Positions 8,121 through 38,188 are shown, counted from the first letter of the stretch. The stretch: 64,000 nt of DNA from an uncultured Phycisphaeraceae bacterium (GCA_964586145.1 CAZPHH010000009.1:5912-69911); one strand, 5' to 3'. Made by a program: numbers and translations. Notes: generated by a model not told the origin, from the letters alone.

Positions 8121-8132
8121 GGCAAACGCACG

Positions 8133-8951
8133 TCAGATCAACGCCTTGAAACCGAACAACCCCTTGTAGACGCCCTGCGCAAAAGTCGCCACGAAGAAGT
8201 CGATCACCAGAATCACGATGAAGTTGGCCACGAAGGAGTCGGTGCAGGCTTTCCCGACACCCTCCGCCCCGGGCCTGCAGTAGAACCCCTTGTAACAGGC
8301 GATGGTCCCGATACTGCCCCCGAAGAGCAGGCTCTTGACCAGCCCCACCCCCACGTCCCATTTCTCGATGGCCTCGGCCGTCCAGTACCAGTACGGGCCC
8401 GACGGAACGTCCTTCACCACGACCGCGATGAACCAGCCCGCCAGGCAACCCGCCAGGTCGCAGAAAAACGTCAGCAGCGGGGTCAGAAGCAGGCAGGCCA
8501 GAAACCGCGGAACCACCAGGTGCCGGACCGGGTCGGCCCCCATGACCCGGTACGCATCCAGTTGTTCCGTCACGTTCATCGTGCCCAGTTCGGCGGTCAG
8601 GGCCCCGCCCACCCGACCGGCCAGCATCACGCCCGCCAGGACCGGCCCCAGTTCCTTGACCAGGGTCAGGTTCAGGAGCATGCCCATTTGCTCCTGGAAA
8701 CCGGCCGCCGCCAACTGGTCATACGCCTGGACGGCCAGCACCAGGCCCACGAAGACGCCGGTGATCAGCACCACCGGCAGCGTCCGGTTGCCGACCTCGT
8801 AAAACTGAGGCATGACCCGCTGCCAGGTGCGATAGCGGGGCAGGCCCACAAGCGTCCGTTCGAGCATGGTGCCGGTGAAGCACCAGAACTGCCCGAAGGA
8901 CGCAAATGAAGCAACCGCTTTTCCGCCGCAGCGTGCGATCAGGCCCAGCAT
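8133..8951 (-). CDS. ABC transporter permease (MlaE-like)
   Basis: Polytopic membrane protein with MlaE-like sequence (ELGPVLAGVMLAGRVGGALTAELGTM). The start is uncertain (ATG 8951 chosen; the ORF is open to 9029). Confidence 0.8.
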   Translation of the reverse strand: MLGLIARCGGKAVASFASFGQFWCFTGTMLERTLVGLPRYRTWQRVMPQFYEVGNRTLPVVLITGVFVGLVLAVQAYDQLAAAGFQEQMGMLLNLTLVKELGPVLAGVMLAGRVGGALTAELGTMNVTEQLDAYRVMGADPVRHLVVPRFLACLLLTPLLTFFCDLAGCLAGWFIAVVVKDVPSGPYWYWTAEAIEKWDVGVGLVKSLLFGGSIGTIACYKGFYCRPGAEGVGKACTDSFVANFIVILVIDFFVATFAQGVYKGLFGFKALI

Positions 8952-9082
8952 GGTCGTTACGGGGAACCCGCCTCGCGCAACACGTAAACCCTGCCGCGAC
9001 CTTGTAATGGCGACGCCCCGGCGTGTCAATTACATGCCCCAGCGGCACTTGCCCCGATTTGTACCCGCGATATGATCCGCGG

Positions 9083-9808
9083 ATGCTTCCCGAATCCCCG
9101 GACGTATCCGTTGTTGTCCCCGCCTTTCGCGAGGCCCCAAACCTGCGTCCCCTCGCGGAACGCGTCTTCGCCGCAACCCGGGGCGCCGGGCTGGACGCGG
9201 AACTCATCATCGTCGACGACAGTTCAGGGGACGGCAGTGCGGAGATCGTGGCCGATCTCGCCGCCCTGTTTCCGGTCCGCATCATCGTCCGGACAAACGA
9301 ACGCGGGCTCAGTTCCGCCGTCCTTCGCGGCTTTCAGGAGGCCCGAGGCCCCTTCCTCGTGGTGATGGACGCCGACCTCTCCCACCCGCCGGAGGCCATC
9401 CCGGACCTGGTTGCCCCCGTTCGTGAGGGCCGGGCGGATTTTGCCCTGGGGTCCCGCTACGTCTCCGGGGGCCACATCGACCAGGACTGGTCGCTTTTCC
9501 GCCACCTGAACAGCCGCATCGCGACCTGGCTGGCTCGTCCCCTCACGTCCGTCCGGGATCCGATGTCCGGCTTCTTCTGCCTGGCCCGCGCCAGCCTGGA
9601 GCGGGCGGCCCCGCTGAATCCCGTCGGGTACAAAATCGCCCTGGAACTGATCGTCAAGACCCGAAGCCGCCGCTGCCTGGAGGTGCCCATTTCCTTTGCC
9701 GACCGGGCGGCCGGTACCAGCAAACTGACCGCCCGGGAGCAGCTTCGCTATCTTCGCCACCTAGCCCGCTTGTACTGGTTCCGCATTGCGGGCCCGCAGA
9801 AGAGATGA
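9083..9808 (+). CDS. GT2 polyprenol-phosphate glycosyltransferase (Dpm1-like)
   Basis: VSVVVPAFREAPNL...IIVDDSSGDGS...VVMDADLSHPP is typical of dolichyl/polyprenyl-phosphate mannose or glucose synthases. The start is set at the second ATG. Confidence 0.8.
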   Translation: MLPESPDVSVVVPAFREAPNLRPLAERVFAATRGAGLDAELIIVDDSSGDGSAEIVADLAALFPVRIIVRTNERGLSSAVLRGFQEARGPFLVVMDADLSHPPEAIPDLVAPVREGRADFALGSRYVSGGHIDQDWSLFRHLNSRIATWLARPLTSVRDPMSGFFCLARASLERAAPLNPVGYKIALELIVKTRSRRCLEVPISFADRAAGTSKLTAREQLRYLRHLARLYWFRIAGPQKR

Positions 9809-9957
9809 CCAGCGCTTGAGGAACGTCCGGTCGTTCGGGTATGCTGCATGTTTTACCGACGTGGGCTGAGCCGACCCACCGACACAGGAGGCGTGAGCTG
9901 CCCGGTCTCCACCCGGGAGCGCTCCCAGACGACAGGCTGCGGCGGAGTGAACCGGCA

Positions 9958-10917
9958 ATGAATGAATCCCTGCGAATCGTCGTGGCCCTCGGGGGCAACG
10001 CCCTGTCCGACCCGACCCGGCCCGGCAGCGTGGCCGAGCAGTTCGCACGCACGCGCGAGACTTCCATCCCGCTGTGCGATCTGCTGGAAGAGGGACACCG
10101 GCTGCTCATCACGCACGGAAACGGCCCGCAGGTAGGCAGTATTCTCCGGAGGGTCGAGCTGTCGCAGCACGAAGTCCATCCCATTGACCTGGGCCTCTGC
10201 GTGGCCGATTCGCAGGCGGGCATGGGTTACATGATCTGCCAGTGTATGACGAATGAACTGCTCCGCCGCCGCATCGATCGCTACGCCATCGCTCTGGTCA
10301 CCACGGTGCAGGTCGATCCGAACGACCCGGCCTTCACGAACCCCACCAAGCCGATCGGCGCGTTTTGCTCGCCCGACGTCGCACGGCGACATATGGCGCA
10401 GGACGGCTGGAAGATGGTCGAAGTGCCCGGTAAGGGCTTTCGGCGCGTCGTGCCGTCACCCCGGCCCATCGCCATCAAGCCGCTTCAGCCCATTAAGGAC
10501 CTTTTTGACAAGGGCGAGATTCTGGTCGCCTGCGGCGGAGGGGGGATTCCCATTATCTGGCGCGACGGCTGGGGGTATGAAGGACTCGAGGCGGTCATCG
10601 ACAAGGACTTGGCGGCCGCCCTGCTGGCCGTCGGGGTGGGGGCGGATCGGCTCGTCATCGTGACCGATCAGGATTGCGTTTACGAGAATTTCGGCACACC
10701 CGACCAGCGGCCCATCCCACGGCTGACCGTGGAACAGGCGCGACAACGTCTGGAGACGGGTGAGTTTCCCCCCGGCTCCATGGGGCCGAAGGTGGAGGCG
10801 GCCATCCAGTTCCTCACCCAGTCGCCACGGCCCAATGTCAAGACCGTAATTACGTCGTATACCACGTTGGTGGACGCCATCCACGACCGCGCCGGAACGT
10901 GCTTCGTCCGCGTCTGA
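9958..10917 (+). CDS. arcC: carbamate kinase
   Basis: MNESLRIVVALGGNAL...ITHGNGPQVG...CGGGGIP motifs. No arcA/arcB nearby. Confidence 0.9.
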   Translation: MNESLRIVVALGGNALSDPTRPGSVAEQFARTRETSIPLCDLLEEGHRLLITHGNGPQVGSILRRVELSQHEVHPIDLGLCVADSQAGMGYMICQCMTNELLRRRIDRYAIALVTTVQVDPNDPAFTNPTKPIGAFCSPDVARRHMAQDGWKMVEVPGKGFRRVVPSPRPIAIKPLQPIKDLFDKGEILVACGGGGIPIIWRDGWGYEGLEAVIDKDLAAALLAVGVGADRLVIVTDQDCVYENFGTPDQRPIPRLTVEQARQRLETGEFPPGSMGPKVEAAIQFLTQSPRPNVKTVITSYTTLVDAIHDRAGTCFVRV

Positions 10918-10973
10918 GAGCGGCCCTCATCCGGCCCGGGAGCAGCTCCCCTGCCGGGCCCCGCCTGCATCCG

Positions 10974-11753
10974 CTACTCGTCGATCCGGCCCCGCTCCAC
11001 GCGATTTCCGGTGGCTCGGGCCGGGTCCAGCCGGCGCAGCACGCGACGGCGCATGGCCTGGAACGGCTGTGTCAGCCATCGATGCACGTGGACGTAGACG
11101 GGCCGGCGGTACGAGGCCGTCAGGACCTCGGGACTCAACTGGTCCCGGCGTGTCCGCCGCTGGAGCTTGGTCAGGTGATACAGGTCACCCTGCTGGAAAC
11201 GCCGCAGCAGCCAGCGAGCCGGCGGGAACCGGCGTGCCCAACGCGGCAGCCGAAACGCGATCTGAAAATCGAAGAGGTACGGCCGACCATCTTCCCCGAC
11301 CAGCACGTTCTCGCACTTCTCGAGGTCCACGTACGCCATGCCGCGAGCATGCATGGCACGGATGGCGTCGTGAAGCCGGGGAAAGAAGTCATCCGGCACT
11401 CGCTCTCCCTTGCGGAGGACGTGCCCGGGCACGAAGTCGTGGGCCGTCGCTCCCCTGCCCCACATACCCACGAACCGCGGCACGGCCTCCAGGTCCGCCA
11501 GCAGGCGAAACATGGCCGCCTCGCGCCGGGCCAGAAACCGACCGGTCCAAGCCATGGGTATCCCAAAAAGAGACACGCGTCGCCCAATCTTCAGGACAAT
11601 CTGTCCGTCGGGGCCCCCGTAGAGTCCGGTGGCGGCGAAGAAGTCGTGCTTGAATCCGCGTACATAGGAATACGGATGCCCGTCGATTTCCACGCTTGGT
11701 GGAAAGGATTCTCTTCCCAGCGCACGCAGCCAAGCCGGCACGGTCCTGGTCAA
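10974..11753 (-). CDS. atypical protein-kinase-like (PKL) fold protein, RIO/LPS-kinase-like
   Basis: Catalytic-loop-like YVDLEKCENVLV followed by LFDFQ (DFG-like). The only in-frame starts near the 5' end are TTG (11753) or GTG. Function unknown. Confidence 0.55.
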   Translation of the reverse strand: MTRTVPAWLRALGRESFPPSVEIDGHPYSYVRGFKHDFFAATGLYGGPDGQIVLKIGRRVSLFGIPMAWTGRFLARREAAMFRLLADLEAVPRFVGMWGRGATAHDFVPGHVLRKGERVPDDFFPRLHDAIRAMHARGMAYVDLEKCENVLVGEDGRPYLFDFQIAFRLPRWARRFPPARWLLRRFQQGDLYHLTKLQRRTRRDQLSPEVLTASYRRPVYVHVHRWLTQPFQAMRRRVLRRLDPARATGNRVERGRIDE

Positions 11754-12297
11754 TGAAACAGCCCCCGACCGCGGCGGCTTCTTCGACCACCGGGGTCAGG
11801 GGCTGATTGTGCGGTCCAGCCCCCTGATTTTCAAATTTGAGGAAGCTGCCGCGCGTCTCGCTCTTCCCGTCCCTCCGCGCGAGGGTGCTTTTGCCGTGTC
11901 GTCCCAATCATCAGCCCCTCGGACGGAAGCTGTCGTGTCCCTCCGTTCAGAGGAGCAGTCAATGGCGTTTCATCGCAAACCGGTCCGCTCTCGCCCCCAT
12001 CCCAGGCGGAGGCTTTCCAGACTCCACGTTGGTCCAACGCCGGGAACAAGGCTCCGGCCAAGGCGTTGGCTCCACAGACACGATCTCCCTTAAAAAAACC
12101 AGTCTTCCTCACGAAACACGTATGGTACTGACAAGGACGGTGACCGGAGCCTTGTCCAGCGTTTCGCAGAATCAGCGTGTGGTGACGAACGGAGAGCCGC
12201 CCTGCGTCGGCAACCGGAACGCAAGGGCACACGCCGCGCGACGTCCGGGACGCCACAAGTTCACTCTTCGTTCATCGGGCTGACGCTTGAGGAAAAT

Positions 12298-12348
12298 ACG
12301 GAATGACGAACAGTACGAATGACGGATTCAAACGGAATACACGCGTCC
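12298..12348. repeat. three imperfect ~17-bp tandem repeats (core ACGGAATGACG) in an AT-rich island
   Basis: ACGGAATGACGAACAGT / ACGAATGACGGATTCAA / ACGGAATACACGCGTCC, read directly. They lie in a 1.1-kb region without a credible ORF. Confidence 0.4.
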
Positions 12349-12838
12349 GCCCATGCACTTTCTATTGTCTGCCAACGTCTATTTCATACCCGATAACGCA
12401 AAAAAGTCAAGAGCGCAGCGCCCCGAAAGTGACAAATTGTTGTCGGCGCGTTGCATGTTCCATGCGATGATGCCTGTTCGGTGGCGTCGCCTGACGCGGC
12501 CGACCCCTCCGCAGTCCGATTCCTGAGCGACAAGGTCCCCTGGAAGCTGCCATCGCAGCTCGCTCTGACGCACGACCCCGCGTCTGAGAACGCGACCGAC
12601 CGTGACGCATCCCATCCCCGCATTTCCTCCGGTCTGAACCGATCCTTCGTAGAGGTTCGTGGACCCGCCGAACTGAACCCTGTCAGCGCCCACAAGCCCA
12701 GGACGTCGCTCACCCGTCGCCGCTTGTCGTCTCGGTGGAGCGTCGAGTGAGGTCAGAGCCCAGCGACCGCCGGCGGCCGACCAAGACTTGGCCGGACCGG
12801 GACGATCGCGGCCAGTCGGTTGGTGCCCGATTACGGTC

Positions 12839-12867
12839 TTGGTGACGGGGCACGGACATACTATACT
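12839..12867 (+). promoter_or_regulatory. candidate sigma70-type promoter for cdaA
   Basis: TTGGTG-17 nt-TATACT, about 70 nt upstream of the cdaA ATG. Confidence 0.3.
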
Positions 12868-12939
12868 CCTCCCGGAGGCGACGGAACGCAGGGGCGCCGT
12901 GTAACCACTTTCGGCAGCAATAGGGGCAGGGCCACCGCG

Positions 12940-13896
12940 ATGCCGGGTTGGCTGATCGCACAATTGACCTTCGCGGATCGGGTCGGGCGTTTCGGAGCCC
13001 GTCTGGCCGACATCGAGTTGTACGATCTTTTCCGGGTCGCCCTCGAGATGTTCCTCATCGGGATCGTCGTGTACTTCACGCTGCGATTCCTCCAGGGCAC
13101 TCGGGGGGCCCGACTGCTACGGGCCATCGGCCTGATCGTCGTCGTCAGCTTTCTGGTGGTCCGACTGGTGGCCGCAAAGCTTGAACTCGACCGCATCAGT
13201 TACGTGTATCCCTACTTCCTGGGCGCCGTGTTTCTCATCACGCTCATCGTATTCCAGACGGAGTTGCGCCGCGGCTTGCTGCTGATCGGGGCGAACTGGT
13301 GGTCGCGGAGCTGGGCGGAGGAGGCGGCCCGGGTCATCGAGCCGGTCGTCCAGGCCGCCGCGAGCCTCTCCAAGAAGAAGGTCGGCGCCCTGATTGCCGT
13401 AGAGCGGAGCGTGGGCATGGCCGCTGTGGCCGAGACCGGCGTGGCCCTGGACGCGGTGGTGAGCGCCGAGCTTCTCGGCTCGGTGTTCTGGCCCGGCTCC
13501 GTGCTGCACGACATGGGCGTGATTATCCGGGGCAATCGAATTGTGGCGGCCGGGTGCCAGTTTCCGCTGACCGATTCCGATGATGTCGACCGCTCGCTGG
13601 GCAGTCGCCACCGCGCCGCGGTGGGCATCAGCCACGAATCGGACGCGCTGGTGGTGGTGGTCAGCGAAGAGACCGGCACCATCTCGGTGGCCGAGCATGG
13701 TCGCCTGCGCCGCTCGCTGACCCCCGACACGCTCCGCCAGATCCTCACCGAGGGCCTGACGGGCGGGGTGGGGCGCGGAGCCGGCGCGAGCTTCCTGCGT
13801 TCAGAGAAGGCCGCCGTGCCGCGTCCGTCCGTCGCTCGGGAAGAAAGCTCGGATGCGTCCGGGACCACGCTGTCCAAGGCGAAGACGGGTACCTGA
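12940..13896 (+). CDS. cdaA: diadenylate cyclase CdaA (c-di-AMP synthase)
   Basis: Three N-terminal TM helices and a DAC domain with GALIAVER...DMGVIIRGNRI...GSRHRAA...SEETGTISVA. The start is set at MPGWLIAQ. Confidence 0.9.
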   Translation: MPGWLIAQLTFADRVGRFGARLADIELYDLFRVALEMFLIGIVVYFTLRFLQGTRGARLLRAIGLIVVVSFLVVRLVAAKLELDRISYVYPYFLGAVFLITLIVFQTELRRGLLLIGANWWSRSWAEEAARVIEPVVQAAASLSKKKVGALIAVERSVGMAAVAETGVALDAVVSAELLGSVFWPGSVLHDMGVIIRGNRIVAAGCQFPLTDSDDVDRSLGSRHRAAVGISHESDALVVVVSEETGTISVAEHGRLRRSLTPDTLRQILTEGLTGGVGRGAGASFLRSEKAAVPRPSVAREESSDASGTTLSKAKTGT

Positions 13897-17331: not shown

Positions 17332-17933
17332 GAGACACCTCCCGTGGAAGTTTCGATTTCATTCAGTCGCTGCCGAGCGGTGTCGGCAGCGGGGGTTTGC
17401 GGAAACAGGTCCACAATTCGCCTGTACGTGGCCGCGCAGGCGGTGCTCACCACCCCGCTGCCGCAACGTCGCTCCGCGGATTCCAGCGCCACGTCCGCCA
17501 CGCCGGCGATCTGGCCGCGCAGCTCCTCCAAGGGGTCCGGCCGGTCGAGTTCCTTCTGAAGCTCAGCCAGTCGGGCACGGCTTCTCTCATAGGCCAGCAG
17601 AGCATCCACCGCCGCCTCCCGGGTCCGGATATCCGACTCCAGGCGGTCGATCTCAGCGCGGAGTTCCGCGGGATCAGCCACCGTTGGCGTCACCGCCGGG
17701 AGTTTCGGCTCGCCGGGGGACGCAACATGGGTGTTGCCCGGCGCTGTGCCCAGGAGCCACCATCCACCCAGCCCCACCAGAAGCAGCACACTTGCCGTGA
17801 CCCCCGTTGTCCGAGTCTGTGTACGCCGCAGGGCCTTTCGGCGAACCCGGTCCGCCAAGCCGTCGGCCAGGGGTCGGCCCGGGCCAGCCGCCGCGTCCGC
17901 GTCTCGGATTAGCCTGGCAAGGGGATCGCTCAT
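17328..17933 (-). CDS. putative anti-sigma factor (single-pass membrane protein)
   Basis: Immediately follows the ECF sigma gene with an ATGA overlap. It has a short cytoplasmic N-terminus, one TM helix (VTASVLLLVGLGGWWLLG) and a helical exterior domain. No zf-HC2 motif was seen. Confidence 0.55.
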   Translation of the reverse strand: MSDPLARLIRDADAAAGPGRPLADGLADRVRRKALRRTQTRTTGVTASVLLLVGLGGWWLLGTAPGNTHVASPGEPKLPAVTPTVADPAELRAEIDRLESDIRTREAAVDALLAYERSRARLAELQKELDRPDPLEELRGQIAGVADVALESAERRCGSGVVSTACAATYRRIVDLFPQTPAADTARQRLNEIETSTGGVS

Positions 17934-18520
17934 ATCGCACCTTCATCCACACCCACGTGGCCCAGTTTCTCCTTCAGACGCTGCCGGGCCCGCATCAGGC
18001 GAACGTTCACGGTATTGGGTCGCACTCCGAGGATTTCACCCACACGCTCCACCGGCAGGTCCTCCAGGTACCGCAGGACGATGACCTCACGGTACGCGAC
18101 GGGCAGTTGGCGTATGGCGTCACGCACGACCGCGGTTGCGTCCCCATCGTGACGATGCTCGCCGGACCCAAACTCGGCATCGGGCGTCGCTTGCCGGAGC
18201 AGCCATAACCACCTCATCCGATGCCGTTTGCGACACTGATTCACAGTCAGGACAGTCAGCCAGGTGGAAAGTCGGCAGTCCCCGCGAAAACGAGCCCGAT
18301 GGGTCCAAACCGCCAGGAACACGTCCTGAACGATATCCTCCACCTCGCCGGACCAGCCCACCAGCCGATAGGCCAGACGAGCGACGTGGCCCTGGTGGGC
18401 CGTCACAAGCCGAGCGAAGGCTGTGGCATCTCCGTCGGCACAGGCCGACCAAAGCCGCGTCTCCTCACTGGCCGTAACATCCACCCGTATTCCACCCGTA
18501 ATGACCAGGGTCCCGGTCAT
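17930..18520 (-). CDS. ECF-type RNA polymerase sigma factor
   Basis: Region 2 (EDIVQDVFLAVWTHRARFRG...STWLTVLTVNQCRKRHR) and region 4 (VIVLRYLEDLPVERVGEILGVRPNTVNVRLMRARQRLK). ATG 18520 is preferred over the TTG at 18571. Confidence 0.85.
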   Translation of the reverse strand: MTGTLVITGGIRVDVTASEETRLWSACADGDATAFARLVTAHQGHVARLAYRLVGWSGEVEDIVQDVFLAVWTHRARFRGDCRLSTWLTVLTVNQCRKRHRMRWLWLLRQATPDAEFGSGEHRHDGDATAVVRDAIRQLPVAYREVIVLRYLEDLPVERVGEILGVRPNTVNVRLMRARQRLKEKLGHVGVDEGAI

Positions 18521-18594
18521 GACCACCCTATTAGACCCGGACCAGGGCGGGAGATGACAGAGAATTCCCAAGGCGGCGGGCCGGCAGGCAGGCT

Positions 18595-19323
18595 TCAGGA
18601 TGGGATTGCCGCGAGGGCATCGCGGATTTCGCGGAGGACGGCGTCGTGCCGGGGGGTCCAGGCCCGGGCGGGTCGGGATTCGGCCTCGTCGTCGCCCAAC
18701 CCGGCGGTTTTCGACCCTCGGAGGCGGTCCAGGATGAGCGTACGGACGTGTTGGGGGTCTTGGATGCCTTCGATCAGCCCCTGGTTGGTGACCTGGAAGC
18801 CTTTCTCATGGGAGTCACCGCCCGCGCCGGCCGTCTCGACAACCACATCTGCGATGGCGAAGTGCCGCTGCACCGGGCCCTGCGAGACACGGATGTTCTG
18901 GACGTTTTCAAAGGTGATCGTCACCTCGCGGATGACCCAGACGCCTCGCCGAATGCGAAGGCTGCGCCGCGTCATGACGTACCAGGTAGTGTCGTACCGC
19001 AGGTGCAGCGCCACGAACACGATAATGTCCGGCACAACCGCCAGAATGAAGGCCACCGGAAACAGCAGAATGCCCAGCCAGGGGACGAAGACCGTCAGGA
19101 CGATCCAGCCGACGAGGATGGCCACGTCCAGCGGCAGCAGGCCGAGCCAGAACCAGAACTTGAGATACCGCAGGAAGCCCGGGGCGGGCTGAAACGTCTC
19201 GATGACGTCACCCGGCTCCACGGGCAGCGTCGGCGGTTCTTTCGGCACGCGGAACCAGTCGACGAGCACGCGCCAGACGCCCTGGTAGATCCACTGCGAA
19301 GCATGCTCCGTTCGGCCGCTCAT
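18595..19323 (-). CDS. bPH_2 (YdbT-like) membrane-flanked PH-domain protein
   Basis: TM hairpin followed by YVMTRRSLRIRRGVWVIREVTITFENVQNIRVSQGPVQRHFAIADVVVETAG. The ATG at 19323 overlaps the upstream stop (ATGA). Confidence 0.7.
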   Translation of the reverse strand: MSGRTEHASQWIYQGVWRVLVDWFRVPKEPPTLPVEPGDVIETFQPAPGFLRYLKFWFWLGLLPLDVAILVGWIVLTVFVPWLGILLFPVAFILAVVPDIIVFVALHLRYDTTWYVMTRRSLRIRRGVWVIREVTITFENVQNIRVSQGPVQRHFAIADVVVETAGAGGDSHEKGFQVTNQGLIEGIQDPQHVRTLILDRLRGSKTAGLGDDEAESRPARAWTPRHDAVLREIRDALAAIPS

Positions 19324-19838
19324 GCCTCGGCCCTCCTCTGCCTCGCCAGTCGGCGCACTTCGTCGCGGATTTCGCAAAGGACCTTCAGGGTCTCGTCCCC
19401 ACCGTCACCCGCGTCGGCCGGTGTCTCCGGGCTTCCTTCTCCCCTGGCCCCGCGCATCTGCGCGTAGAGGTAGTCTCGCAGAGCTTCCGCCAGCAAAATG
19501 CCCTCAATGGTCATCTCCGCCCCGGCCGACCCGGACGCAGTCTGGACGGAAATCGTGGCCAGGCCCAGCCAGCGGTGCAGGATGTTCCGGGTCACGTGGA
19601 TGTCCTGGATTCGCCGGTACGTCAAATAGATTTCGCGGCGAAACAGGACGCCCCAGGACATGGAGACGCCCTTGTCGTCAAAGCGGTACCGAAGCGTGTG
19701 GTACTTGCACCAGAGAACGATGATCACCACCGGAAAGGCCACGGTGGTCAGCAGGGACACGAGAATGTAGTAGGTCATCAGCACCGGGTCGGGGCGGGTG
19801 ATGGCCTGCGGATCGAAAGGCATTTGCGCACGTGACAT
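19320..19838 (-). CDS. bPH_2 (YdbS-like) membrane-flanked PH-domain protein
   Basis: TM hairpin and RYRFDDKGVSMSWGVLFRREIYLTYRRIQDIHVTRNILHRWLGLATISVQTAS. ATG 19838 has a GGAGG 7 nt upstream. Confidence 0.75.
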   Translation of the reverse strand: MSRAQMPFDPQAITRPDPVLMTYYILVSLLTTVAFPVVIIVLWCKYHTLRYRFDDKGVSMSWGVLFRREIYLTYRRIQDIHVTRNILHRWLGLATISVQTASGSAGAEMTIEGILLAEALRDYLYAQMRGARGEGSPETPADAGDGGDETLKVLCEIRDEVRRLARQRRAEA

Positions 19839-19902
19839 TACGGGGCCTCCGTTGTGGTCGGGCCGCAACGCCGAGCGATCATACCGTTCCTGCGATCAGA
19901 AT

Positions 19903-22900
19903 CTATGGCGCCGCCGCATCGCGGCCGTGTCCGCGCGGCTCTCCGCCGGCGAGCTTTGCGACCTCGGTGCCCGCCAGCAGGAACGCGCCGACCCCGTACG
20001 GCATAGAACTGTCAAAAGAGGTCGCCCCCGGCGCCGCGGCGGGCACCTGCACGAACCCGAGCTTGCCGTCCGGGTGGACGGAGGCCGCCAGGGCATCCCA
20101 CGCACTGCGAACGACAGGCGTGTATGTCTCGCGGTCCAGAATGCCCTGATTGACCCCCCACGCCAGGGCGTAGCAGAAGAAGCCGGTGCCGCTGGTTTCC
20201 TTTACGGCCGGATCGTCGGGATCCAGCAGGCTGGGATGCCACGTGCCGTCCGGCGTCTGCAGCTTCACGATGCGGGCCGCCATCTTCGTGAAGAGTTCCA
20301 CGTAGCGCGGGCGGTCGGGATAGTCCTCGGGCATCTTCGATAACACCCGCACCAACCCGGCCATCACCCAGCCGTTGCCGCGGCTCCAGAAGACCTTCTT
20401 CCCGTTGGCCGCGCGGCGGCCGAAGAAGCTCGAATCACGCCAATACAGCGATTCCTCGGCATCAAACAGATAGTCCGTCGTGTGCCACCACTGCTCGTTC
20501 ATGGTGTCCAGGTACTTCCGATCTCCCGTGACGGCGTACAGGTAGGCCAGCGACGGCGGGCCCATGAAGAGCGCGTCGCACCACGCCCACTCGCGGAGAT
20601 GGATGTTGTTCTTCCACTCCAGGGATTCGGTGTGGGGGCGAGCGGCGATCTGGTCGGCCACGTCTTGCCAGTTGGCGATCATCTCCGGGGACTTGTAAAT
20701 TTCGTAGAGCTCGGAATACGTCTGGCCGACGCAGTAATCGTCGGCGAAAAACGTCCGCGGCCCGATCTTCCACTCATTCTCCTCGCCGATCGCTTTCATG
20801 GCCTCGTAATATCGCCGGTCGCCCGTGTGGTGGCCGAGAGCCATCGCGCCGGCATAGAAGGCGCCGTTGATCCAATCGGTCTTGCTGACGGGCAGTTCCT
20901 GCGTGAGTTGCCAGTCCGCCACCTGCCGCATGAGGGCCTCGATCGCCTCGGGGTCGCGTGCGGAACTGGGGCGGGTTTGGTGCATCATGATGGCCGTGCG
21001 GAAGTCGGTGTAGTGGCGATAGTCCCCATTCATCCAGAACAGGCCGGATGCGTCGGCCGGGTGGTTCCGGGCGACGAACGGCCGAATGTTGTGCCTCGCG
21101 GAGTTCCCGGTGATGTGCTCCGATCGCCAGGTCCGGCCCAGGTCGGCCGTGGTCCAGCGTTCGATCTCGAAGCGGTCGTTCCGTCGGCGTGAGAGATACA
21201 CTACGGACGGTTGCGTGTGATCCAGCACCACGCCGCCCGAGTAGTGCGGCTCTCGCTCTCGCTCGCCCTTTGGGGTCTGGGGAAACCACGGACCGGCCCA
21301 GGTAATCTCGTTGTCGATCCACCGGCTGCCGTCCCACGCCGCATAGCGGTAGCGGTGATCCTCTTCCGTGGGGCAGGCCGCGTATACGAGGATCGGACGG
21401 CCGTTCGCGTCCAGCGCGAGGTCCCACACCCAGGCGCGTGCGTTGCCGTGGGCGGCCGCGTCGTACACCTTGTCGGCCTGCGACGGTTCGAATGGAAGAT
21501 CGGCCAGGGCCGCGATTTGGCTGCCGTCGGCCCGGTGAAAGGCGCCGTCATGGTAGCAGGCGTAGTAAACGCTGTTGAGCGGCTCATTTCGCGGGTGCCC
21601 GTCGGTGAAGATGAGGTGGATTTTCTTCCGGCCATCGGTGGCGATTTTGACGTAGGGGCGGTTCCCTTGTGTGTTCTCCTTGCGCGACAGCACCGTTCCG
21701 AGCGGCTCCCAGGACTCACCGTTGTCGCGCGACCGAGCCCAGTTGGGTTTGAAATTGTCGCCTCTCCAGAAGAGGTAGATCGTGTTGTCCTCTTCCGTCA
21801 GAAGAACGGGATTGGGATACGTAACGCTCTTGTTCGGCCGGGGCCCCGTGTGGATGGGCAGAGCGCGTTCCTCGCTCCACGGCTCCAGCGCCTTCGGATT
21901 GCTGCACACGCGGGCGAGCATCTCGTCGCCGCCGTGACGGGAGTAGAAAGCCATGAGCTTCCCGTCGGGCAGAAACAGCAGCGACGGGTTGTCGTGATCG
22001 TCCCGCTGCAGCTTCTCGTGGAGCGTGGCCACGCGGGGCGTCCGGCCGGCCGGGTTGATGCACCCCACCTGAACGGAGCCGTCAGTGCTGAGCCAGCCGA
22101 TGTACGTCCGTCCGTCGTGCCAGACGGCCCTGGGATCCGCAAACCAGCACCACGCGCCGCCCGGGGTGACGACGGAGAACGAGCCGCCGGGCGGCGCATC
22201 GCTTTTGAGCCTGGCCGAGGCCGGGGCAATGAGCATGGTCACCCGGGCCTTCTCAACGGGCTGGGTCAACTCGATTCCCACCCGGGTGGGCTGATCCGGT
22301 ACCCGAAGGTTTTCGTGGATGGCCTCCGGGCGGATTTCGAAGGGGCTGCCTTCCACGGCGATGCGCACTCGAACGGCCGCCTTCTTCCCCAGGATGAGCA
22401 CTTCATCGGGCGCGATGCGTTCACAATGCCCGAACGTGATCAGGGCGTCGGCGAACCTCTCGGGCCCCCGAAAGACGACCTCGTCCACGATCTTCAGGTG
22501 GCCGTCGCCCTGGCGGGAGTACTCGAACGCGCGATGCAGCTTCTCCAACTGCGGCACGTCGTAGGCCGAGGTCAGGTCCAGGACCAGGGTGTCGCTCTGT
22601 TCCGTGAAGTCCGTTCGAAGCACGCGGCCCTGCGCCTCCGCACCCGTCCGTTGAAGCTGACCGGCCACGACGGGGACCGGGTGGCCGAAGGAGTTCAGGG
22701 CCTTGCTGTCGTACCGCCCGCTGCCGAAGGTCCGCGCGGTGTACACCTCCGCTCCCAGCTCGGCAAGGACAATCTCTTTTCCGACCGCCACCACGTATGA
22801 TCCGACGTCATTGTGGTTGTGGTGCTCGGCGTTGTGCCCGCCCTTGAGGGCCACCCCCATTTTCGCGGACGATGCGACGCCTGGCCGGGCAATCAGCACG

Positions 22901-24108
22901 CCGGCGTCTGCAAACCACGTCCGCGGACCGGGGCCGCTGGACGCCTCCGGCGCCGGCGCCGACCGGGAGGCGGAGTTGGGAAAGCCATACAGGAGGACGA
23001 TGGGCAGCGAACTGCGGGACGAGCCCGGTTCCTTCCGCTCCCACTGCTCCAGTCCCAGTCCGAGCCTTCGACTCACGTAGTACATTGCGGCGGGATCCGG
23101 GCGGGTGGCGATCGGGCAATCGGCGAACGCCGGGTACAGGCCGTTGAAGATCTCAAGCCGCGCGCCGAACTGCGCCGGCTCTTTCACTCCCTCGACCGCC
23201 AGGAGGTCCAGGGCCCCTCCGGTCGCCTGGTGAATTGCCTCCACGAGCAACACGTAGTGCCCGAAGCCGTAATTCCAGTAACTCAATCCTTCCGAACAGT
23301 AGCCGTCCGGCGTGAATCCCTGGAGGAAGTACCTGGAGTACAACTCGGCCGCCGCGATGAAGAGCGCCCTCTCGTCACGCGATTCGACCAGGGCCAGCGC
23401 CGCCTGCGTGACTTCGGCCAAGCACACGCTGTTCCAGTTGTTCGTCCATTTCAGCCATCGGTCCGGCGGCCGGTTCCCGTCCAGCGTGGCGAGAAACGGA
23501 TCCAGCGTCCGTCGCCGCACGTTTTCCCGCAGCAACGCCCGCGTCTGCGGCTGGAGCCGATCCCCGAGCAGGTAATCTGCCAGGGCGAGGTTGGCCGACA
23601 GGTGGGAGGACCCGAGATCGATGTGCGTCGCCTTCCCGTGAAAATTCTCGAGCTTCGGGTCGTGCGCCGACATGACCCACGTGCGTTCTGCGCAAAGGGC
23701 GTGAATCACCTCTTCCAGCGCCGGCAGAAACCGGCCCGCGTTCTCCATGCACTCGGCCAGCACAAACGGCGCAATCCGCCCGCGTCGCTGGTTGGCGACC
23801 CTCTCCCACCGGCTGCGGTTTCCGTTTTCCGTGTACTCCAGAAAGAGCGCATCCGGCTGCTCCGGCAGGGGCCCTGTCAGGAGCTTTTCCGCCCGGGCCA
23901 TCCACGCCTGCGACGACTCGCGCTGCGCGAACCGCTTCCAGGCGGCGCGGTCGGCGATGGGCGGACCAAACCCGCACGGGTCGGGGCCGAGCATGGCCGC
24001 AATCTCCCGGACGCGGGCCTCGGGCGGGCGCTCGACCTCCGCGAAGGACAACGGGCTCGAGAGAACCACCGCCGCACACATGACCATATTTGAACAGGTT
24101 GGTTTCAT
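19903..24108 (-). CDS. secreted three-module polysaccharide-degrading enzyme: heparinase II/III-like lyase + BNR_4-like beta-propeller + GH105 (unsaturated rhamnogalacturonyl/glucuronyl hydrolase)
   Basis: Signal peptide MKPTCSNMVMCAAVVLSSPLSFA. N-terminal module with GGHNAEHHNHNDVGSY (heparinase II/III). Middle module WCWFADPRAV...DNGESW (BNR-like). C-terminal YteR/GH105-like module (REWAWCDALFMGPP, WSRGNGWVMAG, SGTGFFCYALAWG). Confidence 0.85.
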   Translation of the reverse strand: MKPTCSNMVMCAAVVLSSPLSFAEVERPPEARVREIAAMLGPDPCGFGPPIADRAAWKRFAQRESSQAWMARAEKLLTGPLPEQPDALFLEYTENGNRSRWERVANQRRGRIAPFVLAECMENAGRFLPALEEVIHALCAERTWVMSAHDPKLENFHGKATHIDLGSSHLSANLALADYLLGDRLQPQTRALLRENVRRRTLDPFLATLDGNRPPDRWLKWTNNWNSVCLAEVTQAALALVESRDERALFIAAAELYSRYFLQGFTPDGYCSEGLSYWNYGFGHYVLLVEAIHQATGGALDLLAVEGVKEPAQFGARLEIFNGLYPAFADCPIATRPDPAAMYYVSRRLGLGLEQWERKEPGSSRSSLPIVLLYGFPNSASRSAPAPEASSGPGPRTWFADAGVLIARPGVASSAKMGVALKGGHNAEHHNHNDVGSYVVAVGKEIVLAELGAEVYTARTFGSGRYDSKALNSFGHPVPVVAGQLQRTGAEAQGRVLRTDFTEQSDTLVLDLTSAYDVPQLEKLHRAFEYSRQGDGHLKIVDEVVFRGPERFADALITFGHCERIAPDEVLILGKKAAVRVRIAVEGSPFEIRPEAIHENLRVPDQPTRVGIELTQPVEKARVTMLIAPASARLKSDAPPGGSFSVVTPGGAWCWFADPRAVWHDGRTYIGWLSTDGSVQVGCINPAGRTPRVATLHEKLQRDDHDNPSLLFLPDGKLMAFYSRHGGDEMLARVCSNPKALEPWSEERALPIHTGPRPNKSVTYPNPVLLTEEDNTIYLFWRGDNFKPNWARSRDNGESWEPLGTVLSRKENTQGNRPYVKIATDGRKKIHLIFTDGHPRNEPLNSVYYACYHDGAFHRADGSQIAALADLPFEPSQADKVYDAAAHGNARAWVWDLALDANGRPILVYAACPTEEDHRYRYAAWDGSRWIDNEITWAGPWFPQTPKGEREREPHYSGGVVLDHTQPSVVYLSRRRNDRFEIERWTTADLGRTWRSEHITGNSARHNIRPFVARNHPADASGLFWMNGDYRHYTDFRTAIMMHQTRPSSARDPEAIEALMRQVADWQLTQELPVSKTDWINGAFYAGAMALGHHTGDRRYYEAMKAIGEENEWKIGPRTFFADDYCVGQTYSELYEIYKSPEMIANWQDVADQIAARPHTESLEWKNNIHLREWAWCDALFMGPPSLAYLYAVTGDRKYLDTMNEQWWHTTDYLFDAEESLYWRDSSFFGRRAANGKKVFWSRGNGWVMAGLVRVLSKMPEDYPDRPRYVELFTKMAARIVKLQTPDGTWHPSLLDPDDPAVKETSGTGFFCYALAWGVNQGILDRETYTPVVRSAWDALAASVHPDGKLGFVQVPAAAPGATSFDSSMPYGVGAFLLAGTEVAKLAGGEPRGHGRDAAAP

Positions 24109-24284
24109 AGTGAACCATGCTAGCGCGCCGGCGGCGGGTGTCAACGCGTATCGAGATCGTCTGGGCAGCCGAGCGAGTGCGGGCGAGCCTGTTCAGTGCC
24201 CCCCTCCAGCGTGATAATCCTCCGTGTGAGCGGTGCAGGCGCGTCCGGACATGGGTTCGAGCGCGGCACGGTTGAGGCACACCC

Positions 24285-31397: not shown

Positions 31398-32195
31398 GTG
31401 ACTACGCGGGATCGTCAGACAGAGATGTCCGCCTACCTGGCCGAACACGGATACGCATCCATTTCTGACCTCATGGCCCGGTTTGCCATCTCGGAATCGA
31501 CCGCGCGCCGTGATCTGCAGGAGATGCAGCAACGGGGGCTCCTACGTCGGACGCGCGGCGGCGCCTACTACGTCGGGACTCGAGAGCATCCGCTGAGCTA
31601 CGCCATCCGGGAGGGCCGGTTCACCCGCGCGAAAGAGGAGATCGGGCGTGTGGTGGCCGAGATGGTGCGGGATGGCGACTCGCTGATTCTCGACGGCGGC
31701 ACGACGACGTATCAGGTCGCCCGGCGGCTGCGGGGGCGACCGTTGCAGGTGGTTACGAATTCTCTGCCCATCGCCAACCTCCTCGGGAATGCGCCCCAGA
31801 CCGAATTGGTCTTTCTCGGCGGCTACGTCATGCCGCAGGCGGGCGTCGCACTGGGACCGCACGCCGAGAACATGCTGCGCTCGCTCACCGTGCGGATGGC
31901 CATCATGGGGACGGCCGGCATCACCGAGGAGGGGCTGTTCAACTCGCATCTGCTGATGGTGGAAGTGGAACGGTTGATGATGCAATCGGCGGAAGAGGTC
32001 GTGATCGCGGTGGACCACTCGAAGTTCGGGCGCAAGTCCATGGCCAAGCTCTGCGAGCTGGGTGAATTCCGGCACCTCGTCAGCGATGACGGACTGGAGG
32101 CCCGCTGGGTGAACCTGCTGGAGTCGTGCGGCACGGAGGTTCGGCTCGCCTCCACGGCCGACGGCGAGGACGACGACCCGGGAGAAACGCCATGA
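31398..32195 (+). CDS. DeoR-family transcriptional regulator
   Basis: N-terminal wHTH (ISDLMARFAISESTARRDLQEM) and a C-terminal DeoR sugar-phosphate sensor domain (LILDGGTTT...VVTNS). GTG start. Confidence 0.85.
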   Translation: MTTRDRQTEMSAYLAEHGYASISDLMARFAISESTARRDLQEMQQRGLLRRTRGGAYYVGTREHPLSYAIREGRFTRAKEEIGRVVAEMVRDGDSLILDGGTTTYQVARRLRGRPLQVVTNSLPIANLLGNAPQTELVFLGGYVMPQAGVALGPHAENMLRSLTVRMAIMGTAGITEEGLFNSHLLMVEVERLMMQSAEEVVIAVDHSKFGRKSMAKLCELGEFRHLVSDDGLEARWVNLLESCGTEVRLASTADGEDDDPGETP

Positions 32196-32872
32196 CCCAG
32201 ACCGCCTCGCAGTCCAAGCCGGACCGGGCGCGGATTGAACGCATCGTGCGGGAAATCGTCGCGGACCGTTTCGAACCTCGGCACACGGCCGGCCCCTCGC
32301 AACTCGTTGTGAACATTTCAGCCCGCCACCTGCACATTTCGCAGGAACACCTGGAGCATTTGTTCGGTCCCGGTGCGGAGCTGACCCCGTTCAAGCCGCT
32401 GTATCAGACGGGAGAGTTTGCGAGCGACCAGACGGTGGACCTGGTGGGCCCGCGCCGACGCATCCTGGCCAACGTGCGGATTCTGGGGCCCGTCCGACCG
32501 GCCACACAGATTGAACTGGCTTTTACGGACGCGGTGGGACTGGGCATCGACGTGCCGGTTCGCATGAGCGGCAATCACGAGGGCACGCCCGGCTGCCTGG
32601 TGCTCGGTCCGGCGGGCCGGCTGGAACTGACCCAGGGGGTGATCCGCGCGCAGCGACACGTACACATGACCCCGAAGGACGCGGAGCATTACGGCGTCCA
32701 GGCGGGCGATTCCATGACCCTGATTGTCGAACACGCCACGTGCGCCACGACGCTGCAGGGTGTTATCGCCCGGGTGCATCCAAGCTTCAAGCTCGAGGTG
32801 CATATCGACACCGACGAAGGCAACTGCTGCAATCTGGCGCAGGCAACGCACATACGCCTGGTGAAGGCGTGA
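32192..32872 (+). CDS. pduL: phosphate acyltransferase PduL (PTAC) with N-terminal encapsulation-peptide-like helix
   Basis: Two PduL repeats (VNISARHLHISQEHLEHLFG and VIRAQRHVHMTPKDAEHYGV). N-terminal amphipathic RIERIVREIVADRF. ATGA overlap with deoR. Confidence 0.9.
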   Translation: MTQTASQSKPDRARIERIVREIVADRFEPRHTAGPSQLVVNISARHLHISQEHLEHLFGPGAELTPFKPLYQTGEFASDQTVDLVGPRRRILANVRILGPVRPATQIELAFTDAVGLGIDVPVRMSGNHEGTPGCLVLGPAGRLELTQGVIRAQRHVHMTPKDAEHYGVQAGDSMTLIVEHATCATTLQGVIARVHPSFKLEVHIDTDEGNCCNLAQATHIRLVKA

Positions 32873-32932
32873 CAGACGTTCACGAGATACGGCCTGGCCG
32901 GGCAACGAAACACGGCCGACGGAGAAAGTGAT

Positions 32933-33238
32933 ATGGCAACGATTCAGGCATTGGGAATGATCGAGACGAGGGGGCTGGTGGCCCTCTTCGAGGCATCCGA
33001 CGCCATGCTGAAGGCAGCCAGCGTGGAGATGCTTGGCTGGCGAAAGGTCGGACGCGGCATGGTCACCAGCTTCATCGCAGGCGACGTGGCCGCGGTGAAA
33101 TCGGCCGTGGCCGCAGGGGAAGCCGCCGCCGCCAAGGTGGGAGAAGTGGTGGCCGTGCATATCATTCCGCGGCCCCACGACGAGTTGTCGGGGCTGTATC
33201 CCGACCGCAGCAAGGTGAAGAAGGGCGCAGGCAAGTAG
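32933..33238 (+). CDS. BMC-H shell protein (PF00936-type hexamer), Arg in pore motif
   Basis: ALGMIETRGLVALFEASDAMLKAA...GDVAAVKSAV...IPRPH. The pore loop is KVGRGMV instead of the usual K-I-G-S-G. Confidence 0.93.
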   Translation: MATIQALGMIETRGLVALFEASDAMLKAASVEMLGWRKVGRGMVTSFIAGDVAAVKSAVAAGEAAAAKVGEVVAVHIIPRPHDELSGLYPDRSKVKKGAGK

Positions 33239-33323
33239 GCAATCACGGCTCGGCCCTTCGGGCGCGGCCCGGCGTTGTGTCGTCCGGTGGGCGCCCGGAG
33301 CGTACCAGGCCCGGAGATGAACC

Positions 33324-33593
33324 ATGGATCAGGCAATCGGACTGGTGGAGACCGTCGGCGCGAATCCGTCCATTCAGGCGGCGGACGCCATGTGCAAGGC
33401 GGCAAGCGTGACGTTGGTGGGCAGTGTGGAGATCGGCAGCGGGTACGTCACCACGATCGTTCGCGGTGACGTGGGCAGCGTGAAAGCCGCGGTGGATGCC
33501 GGGGCGGAAGCCGCCAATGCAGCCGGGGAGCTGGTCAGCGCCCACGTCATTCCGCAGCCGCACGAGGACCTGATGGCGGCGATGATGGGGTAG
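33324..33593 (+). CDS. BMC-H shell protein
   Basis: [24 protein letters not shown]...[22 protein letters not shown]...IPQPH. Confidence 0.93.
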
Positions 33594-33609
33594 TTGCCCG
33601 CGCGGCGTT

Positions 33610-34779
33610 ATGGAAACCATGAACGTACTGGTCGTCAACATCGGCAGCACGTCCTTCAAGTTCCGCCTGTTTGACATGGCGGACGAGACGGTCCTGGCGC
33701 GCGGCAGCGTGGAGGGCGTAGGCAAGCCCGATGCGGCGGTCACGATCCGCATCGGAGACGACCCGCCCGCGGTCACGCATCAGCCGGTGCCGGACCAGGC
33801 GGCAGCCGTCGCCATCTGCACGGGCGGACTGCCCTGCCGCATCGACGCGGTGGGCTTCAAGGCCGTGCATGGCGGATCGATCGCGGACCCGACGGTTGTG
33901 ACGTCTGACGTGCTGCGCGTGATGGAGGAGTTCGCGGACGCGGTGCCGGCGCACAACCCGCCGTACGTCGCCGCGATGCGGGCGTTTCAGACGCGGATGC
34001 CGGAGGTTCCCCTGGTGGCGGCGTTCGAGACGGGCTTCCACCAGACGATCCCACTCACGCGGACGACCTTCGCGGTTCCGCACGAGTGGCGGACGGAGTT
34101 CGGTGTCCGGCGTTACGGTTTCCACGGGGCCTCGCACCGGTACATCGCCGTACGGACCGCCGAACTGCTGGGCCGGCAGGACCTGCGGGTCCTCTCGTGC
34201 CACCTCGGCGGCAGCAGTTCCATCTGTGCCATCCGGGACGGTCGCAGCGTGGCCAACAGTTTCGGCATGACGCCCCAGTCGGGACTGCCGCAGAACAATC
34301 GCGTGGGCGATTTCGACGCGTACGCCATGCTGCTGGTCCGGGCCCGAACGGGAATGGACCTGGATGCGATGCTCACGGCCATGGCCGGTGAGGGCGGGCT
34401 TCTGGGCATCAGCAGGCTGACCAACGACATGCAGAAGTTGGTGGAGGCAGCCCAGGCCGGGCACGCGGGCGCGGAACTCGCCCTCGGCGTTTTCGTGGAA
34501 AGCGTACGGCATTTCATCGGGGCGTACCTGTTGGCGCTGGGCGGGCTGGACGTGCTCGTGTTCACCGGCGGCATCGGGGAACGATCGCCCGAGGTGCGGC
34601 GGCGGGTGTGCGCGGGCCTGGAGTTTGTGGGCATTCGGCTGGATCCCGCGCGGAATGAAAGGGGCGGCGTCGAGGCCACGGTATCGGCTGACGGCGCTCC
34701 CGTCCGCATCCTGGCGATGCAGACGAATGAGGAGTTGATCGTCGCCCGGCAGACGAAACAGGTGCTGGCGACGCGATGA
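33610..34779 (+). CDS. ackA: acetate/propionate kinase
   Basis: VLVVNIGSTSFKFRLF, HNPPY, FHGASH and VFTGGIGE motifs of the AckA family. No terminal extension. Confidence 0.9.
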   Translation: METMNVLVVNIGSTSFKFRLFDMADETVLARGSVEGVGKPDAAVTIRIGDDPPAVTHQPVPDQAAAVAICTGGLPCRIDAVGFKAVHGGSIADPTVVTSDVLRVMEEFADAVPAHNPPYVAAMRAFQTRMPEVPLVAAFETGFHQTIPLTRTTFAVPHEWRTEFGVRRYGFHGASHRYIAVRTAELLGRQDLRVLSCHLGGSSSICAIRDGRSVANSFGMTPQSGLPQNNRVGDFDAYAMLLVRARTGMDLDAMLTAMAGEGGLLGISRLTNDMQKLVEAAQAGHAGAELALGVFVESVRHFIGAYLLALGGLDVLVFTGGIGERSPEVRRRVCAGLEFVGIRLDPARNERGGVEATVSADGAPVRILAMQTNEELIVARQTKQVLATR

Positions 34780-34842
34780 GTGAGCATTCGGGGCCGCCCC
34801 GCTTTGCGGGCCTGGTTCCTCTGAGAACGACCAAGCAAGGAG

Positions 34843-35124
34843 ATGGTTATGGCAAGGCAGGCACTGGGCTTGATTGAAACGCGGGGCCTTATCCCGGCGG
34901 TGGAGGCCACGGACGTGGGGCTGAAGGCGGCAAACGTCACCTTCGCCGGCGCTCGTCAGACCGGTTCCGGATTGATCAGTATCAGTCTGGTGGGTGACGT
35001 GGCGGCAGTGCGAGCGGCCACAGAGGCCGGTGCTGCGGCGGCCGCACGCCTGGGGGAGGTGATCTCGGTCGAGGTGCTCTCGCGTCCGCACGACGAACTC
35101 GAAAAGATCATGCCGAAGAAGTAG
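34843..35124 (+). CDS. BMC-H shell protein
   Basis: ALGLIETRGLIPAVEATDVGLKAA...TGSGLISISLVGDVAAVRAA...LSRPH. Confidence 0.93.
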   Translation: MVMARQALGLIETRGLIPAVEATDVGLKAANVTFAGARQTGSGLISISLVGDVAAVRAATEAGAAAAARLGEVISVEVLSRPHDELEKIMPKK

Positions 35125-35155
35125 CGCTGCCTCGGCCTCAAACGGGAGTGAACCC

Positions 35156-35479: not shown

Positions 35480-35514
35480 CGCCACTCCACAGGCGTCGCA
35501 GACGGAAGTGAGCC

Positions 35515-36963: not shown

Positions 36964-36980
36964 GAGACCGGATAGCGAAC

Positions 36981-38169: not shown

Positions 38170-38188
38170 TTGAAGTGAGGCAACAACC

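Follow-up and report, generated by a model that had tools for sequence, protein, structure and literature searches.

A single gene joins PL33-like, BNR_4 and GH105 modules in a Phycisphaeraceae bacterium: a predicted two-lyase, one-hydrolase enzyme for acidic glycans

A 64,000-nucleotide stretch of DNA from an uncultured Phycisphaeraceae bacterium (GCA_964586145.1, CAZPHH010000009.1:5912-69911), referred to here in its full length as the window, carries on its minus strand a gene for a protein of 1401 amino acids in which three modules follow one another: a PL33-like polysaccharide lyase, a seven-bladed BNR_4 beta-propeller and a GH105 unsaturated uronyl hydrolase. From the family and fold of each module and the conservation of its catalytic residues, we infer that the product is probably an exported enzyme of about 150 kDa, with two lyase modules and a GH105 module, that degrades an acidic glycan built with rhamnose and 4-linked glucuronic (possibly iduronic) acid. 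In the databases searched, the combination of all three modules is unique, whereas two-part fusions of a lyase with GH105 are common. An initial annotation had described one polypeptide joining a heparinase II/III-like lyase, a BNR_4-like propeller and a GH105 hydrolase; the single open reading frame (ORF) bears this out, and the module boundaries first proposed (residues 35-645, 655-1055 and 1063-1400) agree with those derived here. The features of the gene are as follows, with the predicted local distance difference test score abbreviated as pLDDT.

19903..24108, minus strand: complete coding sequence, 1401 amino acids plus stop, counted from the first ATG at 24108
24040..24108, minus strand: putative Sec signal peptide, residues 1-23, MKPTCSNMVMCAAVVLSSPLSFA followed by EV (hydropathy, low pLDDT, start points of homologues)
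22219..24021, minus strand: module 1, PL33-like predicted lyase, residues 30-630 (phmmer, profile, model, Foldseek)
22162..22218, minus strand: linker 1, residues 631-649, SARLKSDAPPGGSFSVVTP (pLDDT below 50 from residue 633)
20974..22161, minus strand: module 2, seven-bladed BNR_4 beta-propeller and predicted lyase, residues 650-1045 (Pfam, profile, model, Foldseek)
20944..20973, minus strand: linker 2, residues 1046-1055, RPSSARDPEA (pLDDT below 50 at domain residues 400-409; GH105 homology from about residue 1056)
19939..20943, minus strand: module 3, predicted GH105 unsaturated uronyl hydrolase, residues 1056-1390 (Pfam, PDB search)
19906..19938, minus strand: C-terminal tail, residues 1391-1401, PRGHGRDAAAP (no recognisable domain)

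Module 1 is closest to lyase family PL33 in both sequence and fold, and lyase activity is accordingly a prediction from homology. In a phmmer search of the PDB its best matches were the PL33 lyases BtPL33HA (8r6z/8r75) and BcPL33HA (E 2e-43), and a profile built from 25 homologues matched PL33 over its full length at E 5e-65, with PL35 second at 1e-30. The AlphaFold model (pLDDT 89.7) consists of an alpha/alpha toroid (helices within residues 30-375) and a beta-sandwich (strands within 396-629), an arrangement shared with the PL33 enzymes BtPL33HA (BT4410; 8r6z/8r70/8r75) and, from subfamily PL33_2, ObPL33gellan and ObPL33CS. All ten top Foldseek matches in the PDB were PL33 (template modelling score, TM, 0.74-0.81; 22-24% identity), followed by PL35, PL15, PL17, PL12 and human dermatan sulfate epimerase. 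The Pfam model Hepar_II_III_C scored 17.9 bits, under its gathering threshold of 24 bits (20.3 bits for protein P0001; several close homologues pass, at 24-49 bits), and no NCBIfam model matches module 1 or module 2. Given the sub-threshold Pfam score, the assignment was based on searches of the PDB by sequence, profile and fold. By the Pfam domain model alone, the heparinase-fold assignment in the initial annotation came close to failing; the PL33 evidence restores it.

The active site of module 1 is consistent with this placement. In BtPL33HA, Asn238, Tyr291 and His444 are the invariant catalytic residues and Tyr470 lies above the dyad, while Arg103, His154, Leu174 and Trp239 form the +1/+2 subsites and Phe475 is linked to processivity (PMC11848413). 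Alignment to BtPL33HA gives N224, Y277, H430 and Y456 as the catalytic equivalents in module 1, and R98, H149, L165, W225 and F461 as those for substrate binding and processivity. All nine were confirmed in the module 1 sequence and are invariant in the 25-sequence alignment, which takes in distant GH105-fused relatives, so that module 1 keeps the Asn/Tyr/His/Tyr catalytic set, the Arg/His/Leu/Trp subsite and the processivity Phe of PL33. One further position separates the PL33 subfamilies, with Trp in PL33_1 but Val in PL33_2 (PMC11848413), and V228 of module 1 stands at the position of the PL33_2-type Val. The His301 described as covarying with this Trp-to-Val exchange (PMC11848413) was not used: the nearest His in the aligned 8r6z sequence was counted as 294, opposite Y280. 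Module 1 differs from PL33 in being only 22-24% identical to the solved PL33_1 enzymes, and in belonging to a clade, drawn mainly from Planctomycetota, Verrucomicrobiota and Armatimonadota, in which no member has been characterised.

Module 2 scores 129 bits against Pfam BNR_4 (PF15892; cut-off 27.3). Its homologues are mostly standalone proteins of about 440 amino acids, 50-59% identical to it, from Verrucomicrobiota, Planctomycetota, Acidobacteriota, Gemmatimonadota, Fidelibacterota and other groups. A profile of 29 of these homologues had a single significant match among solved structures, the PL25 ulvan lyase 5uam (E 7e-9, 274 of 444 positions), and matched none of the PL42/GH145 chains in the PDB at E up to 10. 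In fold, the model (pLDDT 90.9, 28 strands) is nearest to PL25 (5uas/5uam, TM 0.74); ranks 5-12 include the rhamnose-glucuronic acid (Rha-GlcA) lyases of GH145/PL42 (5mvh, 5mum, 4irt, 7esk and 5mul, TM 0.61-0.67), and the PL24 ulvan lyases 6byx, 7drq and 6jq9 come below them. The 16 best Foldseek chains, from 12 PDB entries, all act on Rha-(1,4)-uronate linkages. A reading of the propeller as a sialidase was rejected, as sialidases reached a TM of only about 0.4.

The catalytic set of this lyase group is also present. PL25 enzymes use His123, Tyr188 and Arg204, together with His143 and Tyr246 (PMC13193363), and the corresponding residues in FoRham1, a PL42 enzyme that is itself a BNR_4 member, are His85, Tyr150, Arg166, His105 and Tyr202 (PMC8377490). 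In module 2, H705, H725, Y764, R782 and Y819 align with PL25 His123, His143, Tyr188, Arg204 and Tyr246; they were confirmed in its sequence and are invariant among the 29 homologues. The most likely role of the propeller is thus that of a second lyase, from the PL25/PL42/PL24 group, and not that of an accessory module, as far as sequence and a predicted structure can indicate. The initial annotation was right about the propeller fold but left its role unspecified, and with an intact catalytic set that description now appears incomplete.

Module 2 nevertheless represents a distinct clade of the BNR_4 superfamily. Compared with the PL25 enzyme PLSV_3936 (5uam/5uas), all of the catalytic His/His/Tyr/Arg/Tyr residues are kept, but the zinc-binding His208, Cys266 and His278 give way to Phe137, Ile184 and Arg191 (domain numbering), only the position of His264 retaining a His; Asn122 is replaced by Asp and Lys125 by Asn. 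Because three of the four zinc ligands and Lys125 are not conserved, and identity is only about 16% (characterised PL25 members are 45-50% identical to one another; PMC13193363), module 2 is not a member of PL25. Its homologues also belong largely to non-marine bacteria, in whose habitats ulvan would be unexpected. With PL42 and the former GH145 (FoRham1, 7esk; BT3686, 5mul; exo-acting L-Rha-alpha-1,4-GlcA lyases) it shares the Pfam domain, the propeller fold and the His/His/Tyr/Arg arrangement.

The third module is a clear member of GH105 rather than GH88, by sequence, with hydrolase activity predicted. Pfam PF07470 (GH88/105) scored 285 bits, and NCBIfam returned only a far-sub-threshold match to BglB. 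The best solved relatives are the unsaturated 3S-rhamnoglycuronyl hydrolase of Nonlabens ulvanivorans (4ce7, E 3e-71), a Bacteroides GH105 (5noa, E 1e-53), an uncharacterised protein whose PDB record gives no function (4q88, E 4e-50) and, far more distantly, the Bacillus subtilis rhamnogalacturonyl hydrolase YteR (1nc5, E 4e-16); no GH88 structure was matched in the PDB at E up to 1. Asp143 of YteR, which we take to be the catalytic residue, aligns with D1178 in the motif WCDALFM. Homology to 4ce7, 5noa and YteR extends over the full length, and the catalytic Asp and the WxDxxFM and RGNGW motifs are kept, upholding the GH105 assignment of the initial annotation. What sets module 3 apart is its position, as the C-terminal module of a predicted three-enzyme polypeptide instead of a single-domain protein of about 370 amino acids.

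Export of the three-module protein is predicted because residues 8-16 form a hydrophobic stretch followed by a cleavage-like site between SFA and E, because residues 1-22 are disordered in the model of module 1 (pLDDT below 50), and because most standalone homologues align only from about residue 23-32 onward. Further into the protein, linker 1 takes the place of two elements found in separate proteins: the stretch at the C-terminus of standalone PL33-like homologues, and the signal peptide with which standalone BNR_4 proteins begin. The former are about 790 amino acids long, and their C-terminal region of some 150 residues, which carries CBM_4_9 where Pfam annotates it, is replaced here by two further modules; the latter have, in consensus, about 35 leader residues ahead of GAWCWFADPRA. 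At the two junctions the signal peptides of standalone BNR_4 and GH105 proteins are absent and there is no translated intergenic sequence, and the junctions look like evolved fusions.

How unusual such a fusion is was gauged by searching residues 202-1401 against 1.84 billion cluster representatives and classifying the best 150 by local BLAST against the three modules, with spot checks in Pfam; architectures are written below from N- to C-terminus. PL33-like modules alone made up 64 of the 150, BNR_4 alone 25, and GH105 with neither lyase 24. In 36, GH105 was fused to a single lyase type in a two-module protein, with GH105 either first or last (17 BNR_4-GH105, 13 GH105-BNR_4 and 6 GH105-PL33-like), and one, the protein's own cluster, had the PL33-like-BNR_4-GH105 architecture. 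A lyase-GH105 fusion had been called unusual in the initial annotation; this holds for the triple combination, confined to a single cluster, and not for two-module fusions. No published description of PL-GH105 fusions was found in the literature searched. Since both module orders occur, the fusions arose repeatedly and independently. Wherever both lyase types co-occur among these representatives GH105 is present too, and it is always the shared partner, which is good comparative evidence, at the level of sequence, that both lyase-like clades would generate 4,5-unsaturated uronates, the substrates of GH105.

Examples of two-module proteins include BNR_4-GH105 in candidate division KSB1 (P0241) and in two Planctomycetota (contigs L001 and L006), and GH105-BNR_4 in P0246 and P0253, the latter with a sorting domain of the type IX secretion system. 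The L001 and L006 proteins are 44-54% identical per module to the three-module protein, and the GH105-PL33-like fusions 37-44%. The implied coupling of lyase to GH105 is common to all of them, and none has both lyase types. One GH105-PL33-like cluster (P0252, 980 amino acids) has 4017 members, and enzymes of this type are very abundant, probably in host-associated samples.

The surroundings of these relatives are varied. On L001, a Planctomycetota metagenome-assembled genome (MAG) named PNC21, the plus-strand region 7830-13252 holds a sulfatase gene and, starting 4 bp before its end, a gene for a 1113-residue BNR_4-GH105-DUF6807 protein, which hints at a sulfated substrate for the BNR_4-GH105 family. 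On L006, a marine Planctomycetota MAG, an ORF of 1838 amino acids (2209-7725, plus strand) carries Alpha-L-AF_C (GH51-like), GH95 and GH29 alpha-L-fucosidase domains, with the BNR_4-GH105 gene two genes downstream, and joining catalytic modules seems to be a habit of these Planctomycetota genomes. An ancestral arrangement in which a PL33-like gene stood beside a BNR_4-GH105 gene was considered and rejected: the upstream gene is the sulfatase in L001 and encodes an unrelated 616-amino-acid protein in L006. On L082 (GCA_030844565.1, 8869-15465), a 981-residue GH105-PL33-like protein is encoded between sulfatase and Peptidase_M60 genes, near a polysaccharide-synthesis cluster. Other partnerships in the survey were GH92-GH105 (P0292), GH105-DUF4861 (P0358), BNR_4-GH105-DUF4861 (P0323), a GDSL esterase with a PL33-like module (P0384) and the sorting-domain protein P0253 already mentioned.

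Taken together, the modules suggest a sequence of reactions. By analogy with BtPL33HA, Tyr277 of module 1, activated by His430, would abstract the uronate H5, with Asn224 stabilising the carboxylate, and the sugar attached at O4 would thereby be eliminated. In module 2, His705 and Tyr764, with Arg782 as charge neutraliser, would release from O4 of a uronate, by elimination, either rhamnose or a chain ending in rhamnose. The new non-reducing end created by each reaction would be a 4,5-unsaturated uronate, and module 3, through Asp1178, would hydrate its double bond, free the unsaturated uronate and expose the next sugar. In the GH145 enzymes a His/Tyr/Arg site frees rhamnose from Rha-GlcA and the unsaturated product is cut by a separate GH105 (PMC8406133); lyase and hydrolase are separate genes in the Bacteroides loci for arabinogalactan-proteins, whereas here they are covalently paired. 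The order of events first proposed, a lyase step and then removal of the unsaturated end by GH105, holds up. Tethering would bring co-export, a fixed stoichiometry and a producer held near its consumer, and perhaps suits a bacterium that has its carbohydrate enzymes dispersed and not gathered into operons.

Likely candidate substrates, which would have to carry 4-substituted glucuronate (or iduronate) and probably rhamnose, are ulvan-type glucuronorhamnans, arabinogalactan-proteins capped with Rha-GlcA, and gellan-like exopolysaccharides of bacteria or algae. Rhamnogalacturonan I (RG-I), which the initial annotation had listed beside ulvan, is the least supported, and is less likely because module 3 resembles the glucuronyl-specific enzymes far more than YteR. 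It is tempting to go further and picture a self-contained depolymerisation machine for a glucuronate/rhamnose polysaccharide, in which two unrelated lyases cut two different linkages onto uronate, the tethered GH105 clears the ends they leave, and the BNR_4 clade is a new lyase family in its own right, separate from PL25, PL42 and PL24; this fuller picture we put forward tentatively, as something possible but rather doubtful.

Several observations weigh against a single two-lyase pathway of this kind. Substrate specificity is not transferable from the characterised enzymes to module 1, at 22-24% identity to those of PL33, or to module 2, at about 16% identity to PL25 and lacking at least three of the four zinc ligands as well as Lys125. 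At none of 78 loci with standalone PL33-like homologues did a BNR_4 or GH105 gene lie within 10 kb. The window annotation holds no sulfatase, recognisable sugar transporter or sugar-catabolic gene, and there is none adjacent to the three-module gene. Moreover, the two lyases may act on different polymers and not on one.

This last point can be stated as an alternative, which we regard as unlikely: a multi-substrate enzyme whose lyase modules attack different polymers while GH105 serves both, so that the fusion would reflect a shared need for GH105 rather than a single pathway. Module 1 could, for instance, act on a polymer pairing glucuronate with hexosamine or glucose (heparosan, chondroitin or a gellan-like exopolysaccharide), while Rha-GlcA caps or ulvan could be the target of module 2. 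Characterised PL33 enzymes indeed cut linkages of N-acetylglucosamine, N-acetylgalactosamine or glucose to GlcA, not Rha-GlcA (PMC11848413); GH105 partners each lyase type separately, with no PL33-like-BNR_4 fusion lacking it; no synteny links standalone PL33-like genes to BNR_4 genes; and a gut GH105-PL33-like fusion adjoins sulfatase and M60 peptidase genes, a host-glycan context. Yet gellan-type and ulvan-type polymers hold both kinds of linkage or both sugars, which leaves room for a single substrate, and the union of all three modules in only one lineage points to a specific need for the combination.

Less probable still is that the protein comprises one heparinase-like lyase and a GH105, with the propeller as a non-catalytic binding or spacer module, acting on RG-I or ulvan and feeding rhamnose to a nearby microcompartment. 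The Pfam identities of the modules fit such a reading as first described, seven-bladed propeller lectins do appear in the fold search of module 2, though far lower (TM 0.45-0.53), and a microcompartment locus lies about 7 kb away. Against it, the PL25/PL42 catalytic residues are invariant across the propeller clade, and 30 representative clusters join the propeller directly to GH105 with no other lyase present, an arrangement difficult to account for if it were a binding module; the GH105 module, as noted, is much nearer to glucuronyl-specific enzymes than to YteR, which acts on RG-I. The microcompartment part of this reading can be judged from the locus itself.

31398-41300, plus strand: microcompartment locus encoding DeoR, PduL, BMC-H, acetate kinase, EutN, aldehyde dehydrogenase, an RnfC/Nuo51-like protein and a tandem-BMC shell protein

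The locus also encodes an RpiB-like protein of 210 amino acids and a 396-residue ORF (38189-39379) without a Pfam or PDB match. Going by microcompartment classifications, it is presumably at least as much of the sugar-phosphate type as of the fucose/rhamnose type, and no class II aldolase, lactaldehyde reductase or rhamnose-catabolic gene was found among the ORFs scanned. Between it and the three-module gene, on the opposite strand to that gene, stand housekeeping genes for Sir2, a metallophosphoesterase, YidC, lumazine synthase and FtsY, and a 145-residue ORF with no Pfam match. The suggestion in the initial annotation that released rhamnose supplies the microcompartment therefore comes down to proximity; such a link is possible through whole-cell metabolism but is unsupported by the locus.

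The idea that a sequencing or assembly error fused three neighbouring genes, or that a recent loss of stop codons produced a non-functional read-through, finds some encouragement in the many standalone homologues of full-gene length that every module has, but it is extremely improbable given seven near-identical sequences from four data sources, identical synteny on an independent contig, uniform base composition, linkers of only 10-19 residues without internal signal peptides, start sites or intergenic remnants, and catalytic residues that are all intact. The minus-strand ORF is uninterrupted over 19903..24144 when read from a TTG; this in-frame TTG at 24144 would add 12 residues to the protein. 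GC content at third codon positions is 0.84-0.86 in all three modules, and the linkers and neighbouring genes are alike. The cluster of the protein at 90% identity has 7 members of 1359-1394 amino acids, on about 14 contigs of up to 76 kb, drawn from ENA, JGI, NCBI and Logan, and on the independent ENA contig L081 the gene lies between the same neighbours as in the window. Because of this four-source cluster and the matching synteny, a frameshift or assembly artefact is excluded: the ORF is real, is not a chimera, and does not represent separate genes joined through a frameshift, a possibility that the initial annotation had raised.

Among named sequences, the RpoA encoded in the window has its nearest relatives in Phycisphaerales and Phycisphaerae, the best of them at 83%. 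The annotated neighbours of the gene in its host, a Phycisphaerae (Planctomycetota) bacterium, are mostly housekeeping genes, and none of them in the window is a polysaccharide-degrading enzyme beside it. Directly 3' of the gene (17930-19868, minus strand) are two genes for membrane proteins with the bacterial PH domain bPH_2 and then one for an extracytoplasmic function (ECF) sigma factor; on L081 the two bPH_2 genes likewise follow, and the contig ends before the position of the sigma factor. Further along the window, L17, RpoA and S4 are annotated at 44014-46703 (minus strand), and small minus-strand ORFs onward to about 59.9 kb look like a ribosomal-protein block; between roughly 46 and 62 kb the GC skew is strongly negative. 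At 60232-63967, a GDSL-type esterase gene (60232-61008, plus strand) overlaps the end of a gene for a 992-residue protein with GHL10, CarboxypepD_reg and Golvesin_C domains (60989-63967, minus strand), which may be another glycan-active protein. These two are the only other candidate polysaccharide-degrading genes in the window.

Multi-catalytic carbohydrate-active enzymes are already known, and the main value of the present finding is as a functional pointer for two lyase-like clades: the repeated, independent fusion to GH105 gives a sequence-based prediction of function for the uncharacterised BNR_4 propeller and PL33-like groups. The three-module protein is also a ready system for testing whether the tethering of lyase to hydrolase improves turnover, and could serve as a one-protein tool against ulvan-type or Rha-GlcA-capped glycans. 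For the organisms themselves, Planctomycetota, which lack polysaccharide-utilisation operons, may keep the steps of a pathway together by gene fusion.

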